From an uncultured Clostridia bacterium (GTDB taxonomy: Bacteria; Bacillota; Clostridia; TANB77; CAG-508): a DNA stretch of 37,488 nt. Of this stretch, positions 20,125 to 24,483 are shown piece after piece. Positions within the stretch are counted from its first letter, which is position 1, and every line of letters starts with the position of its first letter. The stretch spans positions 1-37,488 of the forward strand of contig CALXUH010000100.1 in NCBI GenBank assembly GCA_944391645.1, in the 5' to 3' direction. A model generated the notes under the pieces. The model had not been told where the DNA came from and did no database searches. It worked only from the letters and a program-made list of their open reading frames with translations. The position numbers were made by a program, and so were the translations under genes.

Positions 20125-20859
20125 ATGGGGTTAGTAAAAATGGTAAATGTTATAATTGCGGATGATAATATAAATTTTGCTACAACACTAATGAATTATA
20201 TTAACGAAACTAATGAAAATATCAGAGTATTAGGAATAGCAGAGGATGGACAGAAAGCTTTAAATTTTTTAAATAGTAGGTACCATATTGATGTTGTTTT
20301 ATTAGATTACAAAATGCCAATATATAATGGACAAGAAGTTTTAGAGAGGATCATTGAAAAACAAAAATATGAAAATTCATGCATTATTATTACAGGCGAA
20401 AATGAAGCAATAAAAAATATATCTGATAATAAGATGGTTTATAAAGTATTATACAAATCATTAAGTTTTATGGATATTATTGAAAATATAAATGAACTGA
20501 TAAACCATAAAGCAGAGGTGAAATTAGAAAGAAATATAAAAAACAGAATTACAGAGGAACTAATTTATTTGGGATATAATATTTCCCACAATGGAACATT
20601 ATATTTAATTGAAACGATATATTACATATATAATAATAAAAACAAACATTTGGACAATCTTACTAAAAGCGTATATCCAATAATTGCATCTCGTTTTAAC
20701 AAGAGTGTACACAATATTAAATGTAGTATAGAGAGGGAAAACACAGAAATGTATTTGACTTGTAGAGTGGATGTTTTAAAAAAATATTTTTATTATGATG
20801 AAGATACTAAGCCAAATGTAAAAACGATAATTAATACAATTATTAATAAAATAATTTAA
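20125..20859 (+). CDS. Orphan response regulator with a divergent Spo0A_C DNA-binding domain
   Basis: Receiver domain motifs are IIADDN and VVLLDYKMP. The C-terminal half aligns by eye with B. subtilis Spo0A (LTKSVYPIIASRFNKSVHNIKCSIE vs [29 protein letters not shown]). The start may be ATG 20140 (MVNVII). Confidence 0.7.
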   Translation: MGLVKMVNVIIADDNINFATTLMNYINETNENIRVLGIAEDGQKALNFLNSRYHIDVVLLDYKMPIYNGQEVLERIIEKQKYENSCIIITGENEAIKNISDNKMVYKVLYKSLSFMDIIENINELINHKAEVKLERNIKNRITEELIYLGYNISHNGTLYLIETIYYIYNNKNKHLDNLTKSVYPIIASRFNKSVHNIKCSIERENTEMYLTCRVDVLKKYFYYDEDTKPNVKTIINTIINKII

Positions 20860-20971
20860 AAAAATATTTTTTTGTATCTTTTGTAAGAAAATGTAGAATT
20901 ATAATATATAATACAAACAGAAAAAATATTATTCTGCAGATTAATATAAAGTTGAGGAAGGGGGTGATATT

Positions 20972-21385
20972 ATGACAAAGAAAACTAAAATACTATTTGT
21001 TGTAATTATAATTATAATTTCCTTAATAATACTTGGAATAAATGTATTTGCAGAAAGTACAACCTATACATCATATTTGGATATGTTAGCAGGAAATACT
21101 ACACAACAGGGAAGCACAAGACAATATAATCAAAGAAATCATAGCATTTCTCTTACAATCACTCAATTGCCTGCAACTGGTAAAATGTATATGTCTCTAG
21201 TAAAAGACGGATTCTTTAGTGATACCACAGTGTCATCAAAAGATAATATTGATATAGCACAATTAACAACATATTCGTTCTATATGGGAAACCATGACAC
21301 TGGTAAATATTACTATTATTTTTCTACATTTGGAAGAGGGGCAACATTTTATGCAAATCCTGTACATATGACATGTTATGACTAA
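20972..21385 (+). CDS. Small secreted protein of unknown function (signal peptide, about 110-aa mature)
   Basis: RBS gaaggggg. N-terminus is MTKKTKILFVVIIIIISLIILGINVFA|ESTT. The mature part is rich in Ser, Thr and Tyr, with no motif I recognise. Confidence 0.6.
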   Translation: MTKKTKILFVVIIIIISLIILGINVFAESTTYTSYLDMLAGNTTQQGSTRQYNQRNHSISLTITQLPATGKMYMSLVKDGFFSDTTVSSKDNIDIAQLTTYSFYMGNHDTGKYYYYFSTFGRGATFYANPVHMTCYD

Positions 21386-21400
21386 TATTTTAAATTATGG

Positions 21401-21432
21401 CTATAGACAATTAATATAGTAGTTGTCTATAG
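21401..21432 (+). terminator. Stem-loop between the secreted-protein gene and the ABC genes (possible partial terminator)
   Basis: Perfect 10-bp stem ctatagacaa / ttgtctatag with a 12-nt loop and no strong T tract. Confidence 0.3.
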
Positions 21433-21454
21433 TTATAAATAAAAAGGAGTATGT

Positions 21455-22141
21455 GTGGCTATGAGTTATGAAATGATTTTAAATAAAGCAAATAAGATAT
21501 TTAAAAATGGTGATAAAAAAATATATGCATTAAATAATGTATCGATTACTATTAAAAATGGATTGTTTTATGCGATTATGGGGCATTCTGGTGCAGGAAA
21601 AAGTACTTTAATACAAATTTTAGGATTATTAGATAGTTTGTCTAGTGGAGAATTATACATTAACGGGAAAAACATACAAGATTTATCTGAGAATGAAAAA
21701 TCATATATTAGAATGGAGCAAATAGGATTTATTTTTCAGTCATTTTATTTAAATCCAAAATTAAAAGCTATAGAAAATGTGATGTTACCTATGTATATAA
21801 ATTCAAAAATAAAAAACAGTGATCGTAATTTTAAAGCAATGGAATTATTAAAAAAATTCGGTCTAGAAAAGAGAATTAATCATTACCCAAGAGAACTTTC
21901 GGGAGGAGAACAGCAAAGAGTAGCAATAGTTAGAGCTTTGGCTAATGATCCAAATTTTATATTAGCTGATGAACCTACTGGCAATTTAGATGAGGAAAAT
22001 GAAGAAATTGTTTTTAACGAATTAAAAAAATTAACTAAAGAAGGAAAAACAGTGATTGTTGTTACCCATAATGATATTGTGAAAAAGTATGCAGATAAGA
22101 TATTATATATGGATAATGGTGTCATAAAGGAGGAACTATGA
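21455..22141 (+). CDS. ABC transporter ATP-binding protein (MacB/LolD/FtsE family)
   Basis: Walker A GHSGAGKST, signature LSGGEQQR and Walker B FILADEPTGNLD. The start is GTG 21455 or ATG 21461. Confidence 0.88.
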   Translation: MAMSYEMILNKANKIFKNGDKKIYALNNVSITIKNGLFYAIMGHSGAGKSTLIQILGLLDSLSSGELYINGKNIQDLSENEKSYIRMEQIGFIFQSFYLNPKLKAIENVMLPMYINSKIKNSDRNFKAMELLKKFGLEKRINHYPRELSGGEQQRVAIVRALANDPNFILADEPTGNLDEENEEIVFNELKKLTKEGKTVIVVTHNDIVKKYADKILYMDNGVIKEEL

Positions 22142-23373
22142 AAATTCTAGATTATTATTTAATGTCAATAAATAATATAAAAGGAAATAAAAAAGCTTTT
22201 TTTAGAAATAGTGTTTTGATAGGTATTTCACTATCAATATTAATTTTATCATCAATTACTACAGATTCTATAAATAATGTATTAGAAAAAAATATAAAAA
22301 ATAATTTATCCTATAGAAGTATTTATGTGTCAAATTATGAAGAGATTGATCAAAAAACTTTTATAAAAAACATAGAGGAAATAGAACATGTAGCAAAAGC
22401 TATACCACAGGAAGCGTATTCTACAAATATAGATATTGATTCAATAGATGGTGAAAAATTATCAGGTGCATTATCTCTAATAGGCTCAAATAATGATATT
22501 TCACCACAAATTATTGCTGGAAGAAAAATAGAAGAAAATGAGAAAAATGTATGTATAGTTCCAAAAAAATTTCAGCTTCAAAATTTAGAAGATTCTACAA
22601 AGGATAATGAAATAATAGATGGAGAAGAACTGTTAAATAAAGAGATAGAAATAGTTTATTACAATTACGATTATTCGAATGAATATCCACAAAAGATTAA
22701 TACTATAAAAGAAAAATTTAGGGTTGTAGGAGTTTATGATCAAGAAATAAATATGGGTGAATATTATGAATGCTATATAAATTTTGAAGATATTTTAGAA
22801 ATAAAAAATGAAATCACAAAAAACTCCAATTATATCAGTAAATTTGATCCTATATTAGCAATAGTTGATAATTCGGAAAATTTAGAAACAGTAATGAATT
22901 CCTTAAAAGAACTTGGATATAATGTATTGCTAAGATCAATCCCAAATACAAAACTAATTGATATAATAGAGAGCGTTTGTACAGTACTTTCAATTTGCAC
23001 AATAATTATAGCATTATCTAGTATAATAATAAATGTAATAAAAACTGCTGAAGAAAGAAAATATGAATTAGGATTATTAAAAGCTTTTGGATATAATAAA
23101 AGAAACCTTTGGTATTCTGTTATAATGGAATCTGTTATTACTGCAATAATAGGTTTTATATTATCTTGTATATTTGTTTTTTTAGTTGTAGTAATATTAT
23201 ACTTAGTACTTCAAAACGCAAATTCCGAATTAAGAAAAATAGAATTTATTATAGAGTATAATGCATTTTTATATAGCTTGTTTATGTCTTTAATAATATC
23301 AATATTTGGTAGTGTTTTTGCTAGTTATAATATTGTCAATAAAGCTACAGTTATTAAAAATATAAAAAAGTAA
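22138..23373 (+). CDS. ABC transporter permease, FtsX/MacB type (first of two)
   Basis: N-terminal TM, large extracytoplasmic domain and a C-terminal FtsX-like bundle (LGLLKAFGYNKRNLWYSVIMESVITAIIGF). It overlaps the ATPase stop (ATGA). Confidence 0.8.
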   Translation: MKILDYYLMSINNIKGNKKAFFRNSVLIGISLSILILSSITTDSINNVLEKNIKNNLSYRSIYVSNYEEIDQKTFIKNIEEIEHVAKAIPQEAYSTNIDIDSIDGEKLSGALSLIGSNNDISPQIIAGRKIEENEKNVCIVPKKFQLQNLEDSTKDNEIIDGEELLNKEIEIVYYNYDYSNEYPQKINTIKEKFRVVGVYDQEINMGEYYECYINFEDILEIKNEITKNSNYISKFDPILAIVDNSENLETVMNSLKELGYNVLLRSIPNTKLIDIIESVCTVLSICTIIIALSSIIINVIKTAEERKYELGLLKAFGYNKRNLWYSVIMESVITAIIGFILSCIFVFLVVVILYLVLQNANSELRKIEFIIEYNAFLYSLFMSLIISIFGSVFASYNIVNKATVIKNIKK

Positions 23374-23388
23374 AGTAAGGAGTAATAT

Positions 23389-24483
23389 ATGAGATTATTA
23401 AAACCTGCTTTTGCAAGTTTCGTAAGAAATAAAAAATTATTATTATATATATCAAATATTGCAATAATTATTGGGTTAATAATGGTGATATTTGGCTATA
23501 AAATAGTAGTTGAGAAGATTTATAAAAATGAAATTGAGAATAATATAAAAAATAGAACGATTTTCATTTCGAGCAAAGATACAGAAGTCATAAATTTTAA
23601 TGATATTATGAATATAGAGGATATAGAAAAAAGTCAATATATTTTTAATCCATTAACTGTAAAAATTAATGATGTATTTTTCAATATAAAAAATGATATT
23701 TTATTAGATGAATCTAAAATAATATACGGTCGAAATTGTGAAGATGATAAAATCGAAATGGTTATACCCGACTCTTTAGAAAATGCAGTTGATTTACTAG
23801 GAACTTCTGTAGTTATTCAATATAAAGATTTAATAATAAAAGCTGAAATTGTTGGAATATATAATGATATCACAAAACAAAGTTACGGTTATAGTTCAAC
23901 AAAATTTATGCAAAATATTGTGCAATATGATCAAGAAATCATTAATACTTCAGCTTGTCTAGCAGTTATAAATAAATATGAAAATTTAGAAAATGTGATG
24001 CAACAGCTGAAAAACAAAAATTACAGTAGCAATTTATATGATACAAGTGCTTTAAATGATATAAAAACTTATAGGTCTGTGGATTCTATTTTTAATGTAT
24101 TAATTGGAATAATGACATTATTGATATATATTATATTATCTATGATTATAACTAATATAATTAATTCGGGGAAAAAAGATATTGCTATTTTAAAAGCAAT
24201 AGGTTATAAGCAGCTAGATATATTCAAAATAATATTTTATAGGATATTTTTAATTACAATAATATCATTTACTTTTGCAATAATAATACATAAAACTTTA
24301 GGAATATTATTAGAATACAAAATAATAAAAATTGCCAACTTAAAGTTAAGTTATAATTTGAACTTGGAATTTATATACTATATTATAATATTGTTAGTTT
24401 TAATATTTATGGTTATAATTATCTCTTTAAAAAACGTGAAAAAAATTAAACAAATAGACACAATAATTTTATTAAAAGAATAA
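23389..24483 (+). CDS. ABC transporter permease, FtsX/MacB type (second of two)
   Basis: Same architecture as the first permease (IAILKAIGYKQLDIFKIIFYRIFLITIISF). RBS aaggag. Confidence 0.8.
   Translation: MRLLKPAFASFVRNKKLLLYISNIAIIIGLIMVIFGYKIVVEKIYKNEIENNIKNRTIFISSKDTEVINFNDIMNIEDIEKSQYIFNPLTVKINDVFFNIKNDILLDESKIIYGRNCEDDKIEMVIPDSLENAVDLLGTSVVIQYKDLIIKAEIVGIYNDITKQSYGYSSTKFMQNIVQYDQEIINTSACLAVINKYENLENVMQQLKNKNYSSNLYDTSALNDIKTYRSVDSIFNVLIGIMTLLIYIILSMIITNIINSGKKDIAILKAIGYKQLDIFKIIFYRIFLITIISFTFAIIIHKTLGILLEYKIIKIANLKLSYNLNLEFIYYIIILLVLIFMVIIISLKNVKKIKQIDTIILLKE

Follow-up and report, generated by a model that had tools for sequence, protein, structure and literature searches.

Does a gene cluster for a secreted protein and an ATP-binding cassette (ABC) system that lies directly beside spoVA genes belong to sporulation? 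We addressed this question for a stretch of 37,488 nucleotides (nt) from an uncultured Clostridia bacterium (contig CALXUH010000100.1 of assembly GCA_944391645.1, positions 1 to 37,488, hereafter the window). The host is a Clostridium-like spore former, with spoVA genes present. Identity of the host with a human segmented filamentous bacterium was considered after a literature match and dropped, since the GC contents differ (30.6% versus 26.7%) and no other evidence connects the two. The listing of open reading frames (ORFs) shows five co-directional genes, encoding in order a response regulator, a small secreted protein, an ABC ATPase and two FtsX-type permeases (Table 1). An original prediction, made from the sequence alone, had described this gene content correctly, with every ORF where it was placed and matching Pfam domains. 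It had further proposed a sporulation-linked module tied to spoVA and to Spo0A control, in which a secreted factor is exported or resisted in the manner of skf/sdp cannibalism. We find that the five genes are a mobile accessory cassette, with ca. 4.4 kb of genes inside a 4.87-kb insertion, and that they are no part of the sporulation locus.

The insertion occupies window positions 19898-24766 (4869 bp) and has a GC content of 0.227, versus 0.26-0.28 in its flanks. It is bracketed by direct repeats of ca. 227 nt, whose gapless core of 224 nt is 97% identical (19674-19897/24771-24994) and which comprise the last ca. 171 nt of spoVAE(B) and ca. 56 nt past its stop codon. The original prediction had omitted both these repeats and the insertion status of the genes. 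The left copy includes a minus-strand ORF of 60 amino acids (aa; 19909..19727) that matches positions 70-117 of the Pfam SpoVAC_SpoVAEB profile, and the right copy passes into the resident minus-strand operon spoVAE-spoVAD-spoVAC. Because the right copy is continuous with the resident spoVAE, the spoVA operon retains its 3' end.

Conspecific contigs were found through the L20 protein, by look-up of contigs that encode exactly the form present in the window. These are five metagenome contigs (L017, L019-L022), 98.5-99.7% identical to the window, and they carry an empty site, in which rplT is followed by a 763-nt spacer and then directly by spoVAE. In BLAST alignments the match of these contigs to the window breaks off after 19897 and is taken up again at 24767, and they have one copy of the 227-nt repeat. 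Because they align across the breakpoints, the segment 19898-24766 is present in some strains and absent from others. Presence and absence at one precise site, with breakpoints exactly at the repeat, mark the segment as an integrative island, as do flanking repeats that duplicate the 3' end of the target gene; these repeats are unusually long for an att site. No integrase or recombinase was found in the insertion by ORF and Pfam analysis, the five genes being the only coding-strand ORFs of at least 50 aa within it.

An error of assembly could also produce such a structure, if a separate circle of ca. 5.1 kb carrying the spoVAE 3' end, or DNA of another genome, had been threaded into the chromosome at the 227-nt repeat. 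Short-read contigs L001 and L018 end inside the repeat, an empty-site contig (L020) and a contig with the cassette (L002) come from one sample, ERZ16268261, and a circle would give identical cassette-repeat junctions, all of which is compatible with this explanation. The inner junctions are confirmed by other contigs, the left by L004 and the right by L001. The outer left junction is spanned by L042, a 616-nt contig from an independent sample that was located via look-up of the chimeric 60-aa ORF; it covers window positions 19477-20092 at 99.8% identity, and in one uninterrupted stretch it joins 194 nt of unique left flank, the complete repeat and 195 nt of the cassette. The left junction was also sought in two JGI metagenome scans, which gave no match, and the right outer junction is supported by the window alone. 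Further arguments against an artifact are that the cassette has no replication gene and that the repeat copies differ at four internal positions, each of which also occurs among the empty-site alleles. A circular or plasmid origin was considered, and on the evidence of L042 we reject the assembly artifact, which we regard as very improbable indeed.

The long repeats would be compatible either with a circle that bore a spoVAE fragment and integrated in the Campbell manner or with an integrative element that has decayed, and they would allow loss of the cassette by homologous recombination, restoring the empty site. The four repeat polymorphisms show a crossover pattern such as Campbell-type integration could leave; it is not relied on here, as it concerns four sites only and L018 has further variants. 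The two contigs from ERZ16268261 belong to the same species, so that both alleles coexist in that sample, either as two strains or by ongoing excision.

Elsewhere, the cassette occupies other sites. At the DNA level, the window and other loci are homologous only over 20090-24490, that is, over the five genes; positions 19898-20089 are not common to other copies, and homology begins at 20090-20110. In a sister species (uncultured Clostridium sp. UMGS1933; L015 and L027), a cassette with ca. 86% nucleotide identity lies immediately 3' of tRNA-Glu(CTC), between the tRNA and pfk, and the corresponding position of the window, near 1775, is free of any insertion; the window tRNA at 1701-1772 corresponds to the tRNA-Glu(CTC) that marks this insertion point. 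In L007-L010, where the small protein is 65% identical, the cassette is located within an integrative conjugative element, among type IV secretion genes (VirD4/TraG-like, VirB4-like, PrgI, TrbL, sortase, CHAP hydrolase) and genes for a sigma-like protein and a tyrosine integrase. The cassette of L028 (small protein 50% identical) is on an element with a large serine recombinase, a recombination directionality factor and an extracytoplasmic function (ECF) sigma factor, adjoining tRNA-Thr. That of L011-L014 (49% identical) is rearranged, with the regulator downstream and the second permease truncated, in a conjugative-type context. Insertion status and varied contexts together mean that the spoVA neighborhood carries no functional information, and the proposed functional tie to spoVA is not supported.

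The ABC cargo of L007-L010, set among conjugation and integration genes, resembles by description that of the CTn1/CTn5/CTn7-like conjugative transposons of C. difficile. ABC cargo of those elements has been reported repeatedly and is uncharacterized (PMC3383454). The cassette encodes a small protein for which tblastn found no match in plasmid and phage collections, and a scan of GTDB detected it in only 2 of 185,579 species representatives, both of them metagenome-assembled genomes of uncultured Clostridium. Two further observations concern the most divergent regulator-containing cassettes, L011 and L028. In L011, the second permease (12395-13291) has only 298 aa and no Pfam FtsX call, and the gene for the type IV secretion system coupling protein (7057-8215) is split into two ORFs; both this cassette and the element that hosts it appear to be in decay. 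In both loci a DUF5697 gene adjoins the second permease (L011 13792-14268, L028 12435-12929); the DUF5697 gene is absent in the window, L015 and L007.

The co-occurrence that the original prediction had proposed as a check was found, in that the five genes stand together in other genomes as a functionally linked unit. Distant members of the small-protein family (P0018, P0049 and P0097; 24-34% identity in the family alignment) are encoded in loci that show the small protein, the ATPase and FtsX(-like) genes in this order, with a second FtsX present wherever the contig is long enough; the regulator was not seen in these short loci. The order is thus kept in a family whose small proteins share as little as ca. 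24-28% identity with that of the window. For P0027, look-up gave a single 911-nt contig, which stops at the gene of the small protein. Each locus has a single such gene. Across contexts, the divergence of the small protein goes in step with that of both permeases, the ATPase is the most conserved, and homologs of the first permease (FtsX1) are about as rare as the small protein (15 clusters versus 9, the latter among 5.8 billion sequences in a word-indexed search). Given this shared order, co-divergence and similar rarity, the small protein, ATPase and two permeases form the functional unit, and the regulator is an add-on in a subset of loci. Between the window and L015, the small protein, ATPase and FtsX1 are 83-92% identical (FtsX1 88%), the regulator 74% and the second permease (FtsX2) 59%, and the divergence of FtsX2 from its L015 counterpart (7755-8843) is even along its length. 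The cassette is mosaic, which points to either recombination or faster evolution of the second permease. The PADLOC models of anti-phage defense gave generic P-loop matches for the ATPase only, and none for the other four proteins.

Table 1. Features of the insertion and of the repeats that flank it, in window coordinates.
Feature	Position	Strand	Basis or remark
Left direct-repeat copy	19671..19897	.	Duplicate of truncated spoVAE(B) 3' end; repeat search, alignment
Left arm of insertion	19898..20124	+	Upstream region of regulator gene
Orphan response regulator, receiver + Spo0A_C, 244 aa	20125..20859	+	Pfam Response_reg 1.6e-12, Spo0A_C 2.4e-9
Control region of small-protein gene	20860..20971	+	Alignment of window, L015, L007
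Secreted 137-aa protein	20972..21385	+	Unannotated family; AlphaFold2, Foldseek, profile searches
Stem-loop, perfect 19 bp, CTATAG core	21395..21438	+	-21.6 kcal/mol, z -6.3; no U-tract
ABC ATPase, LolD/MacB/FtsE type	21455..22141	+	Pfam ABC_tran 1.6e-31
FtsX-type permease 1 (FtsX1), 411 aa	22138..23373	+	Pfam FtsX 5e-16
FtsX-type permease 2 (FtsX2), 364 aa	23389..24483	+	Pfam FtsX 1.1e-10; fastest-diverging cassette gene
Right arm of insertion	24484..24766	+	Non-coding; unshared with other copies (homology stops ca. 24490)
Right direct-repeat copy	24767..24994	.	Joins resident spoVAE body (24824-25057, minus strand); Pfam SpoVAC_SpoVAEB

The secreted protein belongs to a family of its own. 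As had been predicted, it carries a signal peptide with cleavage after VFA: hydropathy analysis shows a single N-terminal hydrophobic segment (residues 7-25), and the cleavage-type site V25-x-A27, followed by (E/Q/A)STTY, is conserved among homologs. The predicted mature form after VFA27 has 110 aa, a mass of 12.5 kDa and an isoelectric point (pI) of 6.3; it is rich in Thr, Tyr and Ser and has no conserved cysteine. No family or match was found for the protein in Pfam, NCBIfam, PHROGs, PADLOC or the PDB sequences, which bears out the earlier statement that it lacks a recognizable motif and places it in no well-known unrelated family. A profile search of 1.84 billion representatives (E<=1e-3) yielded 114 proteins, counted as sequence clusters at 50% identity, mostly of 130-155 aa and with full-length alignments. 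All 60 aligned members have a signal peptide; the 60-member family gave no Pfam match, and its profile none among PDB sequences. An AlphaFold2 model built from a 10-sequence alignment (pLDDT 88) consists of the signal helix followed by an eight- to nine-stranded beta-sandwich, and the protein is predicted to be a jelly-roll. The jelly-roll proteins retrieved by Foldseek, discussed below, are the birnavirus VP2 capsid domain, Ena1B/Ena2A, PirA, YPM, carbohydrate-binding modules and uncharacterized phage proteins; on the modeled structure, such matches justify no specific assignment. In particular, we do not read the match to the spore-appendage subunits Ena1B/Ena2A as a link to sporulation.

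The ATPase probably starts at the ATG at 21461, which is used by gene callers in other contigs (L003) and gives a protein of 226 aa. Its top NCBIfam matches all belong to the LolD/MacB/FtsE group (LolD 230 bits, DarD 217, L_ocin_972_ABC 203, MacB 203, FtsE 190), and all are below their cut-offs. Gene calls in L001 and L002 (1535-2224, corresponding to 21461-22150 of the window) make the ATPase 229 aa long, with a 13-nt overlap with FtsX1, versus 226 aa and a 4-nt overlap in the window and L003. The L001 and L002 copies are otherwise 99.9% identical, and the difference in calls implies a small indel near the 3' end of the gene.

The two permeases are 27% identical to one another (BLASTP). Hydropathy indicates four transmembrane helices (TM1-TM4) in both, with a large domain between TM1 and TM2: in FtsX1 the helices lie at ca. 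20-45, 280-298, 340-358 and 376-394 and the extracytoplasmic domain has ca. 235 aa, and in FtsX2 they lie at 17-35, 237-255, 281-304 and 329-347 with a domain of ca. 200 aa. Pfam FtsX covers the three C-terminal helices; Pfam MacB_PCD went undetected in the window proteins and was detected in the L035 permease, P0248, P0254 and P0255. A Foldseek search with an AlphaFold2 model of FtsX1 (pLDDT 84) retrieved LolE/LolC, YtrF, MacB, pneumococcal Spr0694/5, HrtB, BceB and FtsX (E 5e-14 to 1e-4). The matches to LolE/LolC, YtrF and MacB have E-values of about 1e-14 to 1e-11, and the best are LolE and LolC (E 5e-14, TM-score 0.54). A weak sequence match of YtrF to FtsX1 (E 8e-4) adds nothing beyond the fold result. 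On its model, FtsX1 is a type VII (MacB-fold) ABC permease, and the heteromeric, LolCDE-like architecture of MacB type that had been proposed stands.

Like LolCDE, the cassette pairs one LolD-like ATPase with two different permeases of four transmembrane helices and FtsX/MacB fold, which have large extracytoplasmic domains. It differs in that its host is of Gram-positive type without an outer membrane, there is no LolA-like gene in the cassette and no LolA/LolB, the partner gene encodes a jelly-roll protein, and the cassette is mobile, strain-variable and not essential. The scores likewise fall short of the LolCDE equivalogs, with 20.2 bits versus 362.45 for lolCE and 230 versus 307.75 for LolD. 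Heteromeric two-permease systems are reportedly not confined to Gram-negatives: the Vex123-Pep27-VncRS locus of Streptococcus pneumoniae, said to have been described by Novak and colleagues in 2000, reportedly has two FtsX-type permeases (Vex1 and Vex3) and an ATPase (Vex2), adjoining a small secreted product and a response regulator. Pep27 is said to have 27 residues and no Sec signal and to be exported by the ABC system, and the locus reportedly includes a cognate histidine kinase and an OmpR-type regulator. In contrast, the cassette regulator is of Spo0A type and comes without a cognate kinase. The Vex locus is a subject of PMC6177237. The cassette belongs with the systems of type VII ABC fold and, a recombinase apart, with strain-variable islands bounded by target-gene-duplicating repeats; it is a mobile ABC accessory module with an unannotated partner-protein family and an unusual regulator, and its gene content is not startling.

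The regulator shares with Spo0A the architecture of a receiver and a Spo0A_C domain. PF00072 and PF08769 both match above gathering scores, the Spo0A_C match spans the full 104-position profile, the best PDB sequence match is a Spo0A receiver domain, and an acidic pocket (DD) and the phospho-acceptor Asp, in VLLDYKMP, can be read from the sequence. The protein aligns end to end with the Spo0A equivalog TIGR02875 (residues 6-242) and scores 76.4 bits against a cut-off of 200. By these sequence features it is a Spo0A paralog, not Spo0A itself. Its gene is missing from the conspecific empty-site contigs, and a regulator whose gene comes with a strain-variable cassette, and elsewhere with other mobile elements, cannot be Spo0A, which is chromosomal and essential. 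It also deserves the epithet orphan that the original prediction gave it, for a histidine kinase was absent from the cassette in every context examined.

The regulator subfamily comprises at least 120 clusters of receiver-Spo0A_C proteins of ca. 240 aa, all without a functional name. Two members without ABC genes adjoin ECF sigma pairs and unknown proteins, and one of these is on a PcfJ/PcfK/ArdC element. More widely (L036-L041; L028 5118-7281; L011 15469-18217), subfamily members often have as neighbors an ECF sigma factor, a divergent small ORF and a putative anti-sigma factor, which in L011 has DUF4179, and they are often on mobile elements, with varied unknown downstream genes. This suggests a recurrent regulatory module of mobile elements, independent of ABC genes. 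Spo0A_C has been used in the literature as a unique marker of Spo0A (PMC6136694); the paralog family is an exception to that practice.

Candidate control elements lie on either side of the small-protein gene. The 112-nt spacer between it and the regulator gene is conserved among cassettes whose proteins are only ca. 65% identical. It contains a T-rich box (TGTATCTTTTG, at 20873-20883 in the window), which in L015 and L007 takes the form of a direct repeat (TATCTTTTT, twice), TATAAT boxes at 20900-20905 and 20907-20912 (TGTATAAT-type -10) and a strong GGGGG ribosome-binding site. The T-rich box also occurs directly 3' of the regulator gene in L036, where the next gene is unrelated, and it is a candidate operator. 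The stem-loop noted in the original prediction is real (Table 1), and in four divergent cassettes a perfect 17-19-bp hairpin with a CTATAG core sets the ATPase gene off from that of the small protein; the equivalents in L015, L007 and L011 (z -6.5 to -8.8) have changed stem sequences. The hairpin may be an attenuator or a stabilizer that gives more product than machine. In the arms of the insertion we observed an extended -10-like sequence, TGATATAAT, at 19996-20004 and a 20-bp inverted repeat at 24563-24608. A promoter upstream of the regulator gene is a reading of the sequence, promoter-like sites being not enriched relative to shuffles. A canonical 0A box (TGWCGAA) does not occur in the cassette; the whole window has 2, versus 2.06 expected.

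These results bear on the sporulation-linked model of the original prediction, and they divide it. Its link to Spo0A stands insofar as the regulator is a Spo0A paralog that resembles Spo0A along its whole length and might take phosphate from Spo0A kinases; the part that survives is thus a Spo0A-like receiver possibly fed by the host's Spo0A kinases. A precedent also exists in YknXYZ, a MacB-type system that protects against the Sec-exported sporulation toxin SDP (PMC5985334). The immunity part of the idea is kept as a hypothesis, and a Spo0A-type input on timing is possible. Several points speak against the rest of the model. Adjacency to spoVA is an accident of insertion, as seen from the empty sites and the other insertion sites, and the cassette lacks the 0A box. 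The region of the recognition helix is divergent, with a score far under the Spo0A cut-off, and the same regulator subfamily adjoins unrelated cargo and ECF sigma pairs. The spoVA genes are late, forespore-expressed genes, and such expression does not fit control at the Spo0A stage. We consider this model improbable. A mobile variant of it would be a cannibalism-like module in which an element-borne Spo0A paralog taps the host's Spo0A kinases and times the release of a Sec-secreted jelly-roll toxin, of a class not recognized before, to the onset of stationary phase or sporulation, with the dedicated heteromeric type VII ABC system protecting the carrier; to this, too, we give little credence.

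The reading that we tentatively prefer, and which we hold to be quite possible while stopping short of calling it probable, is that the cassette encodes a Sec-secreted antagonistic or surface-acting effector with self-protection by a type VII ABC system, switched on by the orphan regulator. In this scheme, the regulator would be phosphorylated by a host kinase encoded outside the cassette, would bind the conserved T-rich TATCTTTTT box just 3' of its own gene and would thereby activate the promoter of the small-protein gene. The conserved hairpin would limit read-through or stabilize the short transcript, giving the 12.5-kDa protein in excess over the transporter. The protein would be exported by Sec, with the signal peptide cleaved after VFA, and would act outside the cell. 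The heteromeric MacB-fold machine would couple ATP to movement of its two different extracytoplasmic domains, and these movements would keep the protein, or a membrane-proximal target of it, off the producer's own membrane. The role envisaged is self-protection, not export. With a Sec signal on the protein, the ABC system is not needed for membrane crossing, and MacB-family machines are described as acting from the extracytoplasmic face (PMC5985334); export by the ABC system, as first suggested, is thus unlikely.

Several known systems bear on the effector reading. Within the MacB family, LolCDE extracts lipoproteins, FtsEX activates hydrolases and the homolog AS-48H is linked to the bacteriocin AS-48 (PMC5985334). 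The proposed logic is that of YknWXYZ and SDP in Bacillus subtilis, where a MacB-type system gives self-protection from a Sec-exported toxin, outside the membrane (PMC5985334). In contrast to that system, the cassette, with all five ORFs accounted for, has no YknX adaptor and no YknW; Ykn has a single permease type, its toxin gene is not adjacent to ykn, and SDP is a small processed peptide, whereas the cassette protein is a folded protein. The lactococcin 972 cluster, which combines a Sec-dependent bacteriocin of beta-sandwich fold with a dedicated ABC transporter for immunity, is similar in that a signal-peptide gene comes first, followed by an ABC ATPase and a membrane component, on mobile DNA; one part of the literature on this operon (PMC4055356) describes a role in immunity and plasmid maintenance. 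The cassette ATPase scores 203.2 bits against TIGR03608 (lactococcin 972 group export ABC), below the cut-off of 254.85, and the small protein has no Pfam or NCBIfam lactococcin-972 match. A relationship between the two products was rejected after hhalign of the 60-member profile gave a probability of 2%, with a provisional lactococcin 972 sequence as the query. The systems differ further in that the mature cassette protein has 110 aa versus 66, the cassette includes a response regulator, and it has two permeases of four transmembrane helices versus a single immunity protein with multiple transmembrane segments.

An alternative is that the jelly-roll protein, once secreted, works with the ABC system as its extracytoplasmic partner and is not an antagonist. 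One permease domain would dock the protein and the other would handle a membrane-embedded or cell-wall substrate, and mechanotransmission would load, activate or release the protein, as LolCDE does with LolA or FtsEX with PcsB, EnvC and CwlO. The expected phenotypes would be resistance to external antimicrobials, envelope remodeling or extraction of a lipid-linked molecule. The small protein strictly accompanies both permeases, one to one, and diverges along with them, which would suit such a partnership, as would the rarity of FtsX1 homologs, the asymmetry that heteromeric permeases imply, the near-neutral, non-cationic mature protein and the best structural matches of FtsX1, LolE and LolC, which include the LolA-binding domain of LolC (6f3z). 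Arguing the other way, the small protein has no coiled-coil or hydrolase domain such as known FtsEX partners have, and its model shows no LolA-like open barrel; a leading product gene that has a promoter of its own and is set off from the transporter genes by a hairpin is more typical for secreted products than for machine subunits; and the sensor kinase of typical peptide-resistance ABC modules is absent. We judge the partnership possible, if rather unlikely.

The effector and self-protection reading is slightly favored over the partnership because of the leading position of the product gene and its own promoter, the hairpin ahead of the transporter genes, the status of the cassette as cargo of mobile elements, and an operon logic like that of lactococcin 972. 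A number of observations weigh against it. Nothing in the small protein marks it as a toxin. The near-neutral pI (4.3-10.2 across the family) is unlike that of typical cationic bacteriocins, similarity to lactococcin 972 is absent (with the provisional query), and the Foldseek matches of its model in PDB and BFVD are only generic jelly-rolls, with TM-scores of 0.4-0.58. The contexts examined included no "orphan immunity" locus with the ABC genes only, which fits an obligate partnership at least as well, and by analogy with LolC-LolA the two different permeases suggest asymmetric docking of a partner. Furthermore, no recombinase is present to account for integration, and the binding site of the regulator, its kinase and the role of the hairpin are inferred.

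Other observations concern the surroundings of the insertion. The resident spoVAE(B) (24824-25227, minus strand) is split by a -1 frameshift near 25040-25057 into ORFs of 65 aa (SpoVAC_SpoVAEB positions 2-56) and 77 aa (positions 51-117). In the empty-site contigs only the 77-aa part is called, with ca. 197 nt uncalled before spoVAD, which makes the split look like a genuine feature of the species and not a fault of assembly. The spacer between rplT and spoVAE (18964-19726) falls in the most GC-rich 1-kb bin hereabouts (19001-20000, 0.316). On its minus strand it has a near-consensus promoter (TTGACA-17-TGnTATTAT, 19659..19631), two small hairpins, an ORF of 128 aa (19572..19186) with no family match that is uncalled by gene callers elsewhere, and a 14-bp GC-rich hairpin (19180..19149) 3' of that ORF. 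An Rfam search of 18900-20200, at gathering scores and at E<=1, gave nothing credible; the spacer may hold an unannotated small gene or RNA. A bacterial class A RNase P RNA is located at 13961-14313 (290 bits).

If the proposed mechanism is true, the cassette would define an unannotated family (ca. 114 clusters at 50% identity) of secreted 12-kDa proteins, each paired with a two-permease MacB-type ABC system in every examined locus that extends past its gene, and spreading among gut Clostridia on conjugative and integrative elements. It would thereby add a new protein effector and immunity pair, or a new extracytoplasmic ABC partner, to the few understood type VII systems of Gram-positives. 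Were the cannibalism-like module correct, Spo0A_C, which would not be unique to Spo0A, would found a family of mobile-element regulators in gut Clostridia. Whatever the function of the cassette, the natural presence/absence polymorphism within one species supplies matched strains for a comparison of killing and immunity, and the existence of a sizeable family of receiver-Spo0A_C paralogs on mobile elements qualifies the common use of Spo0A_C as a unique marker of Spo0A and of sporulation capacity (PMC6136694).

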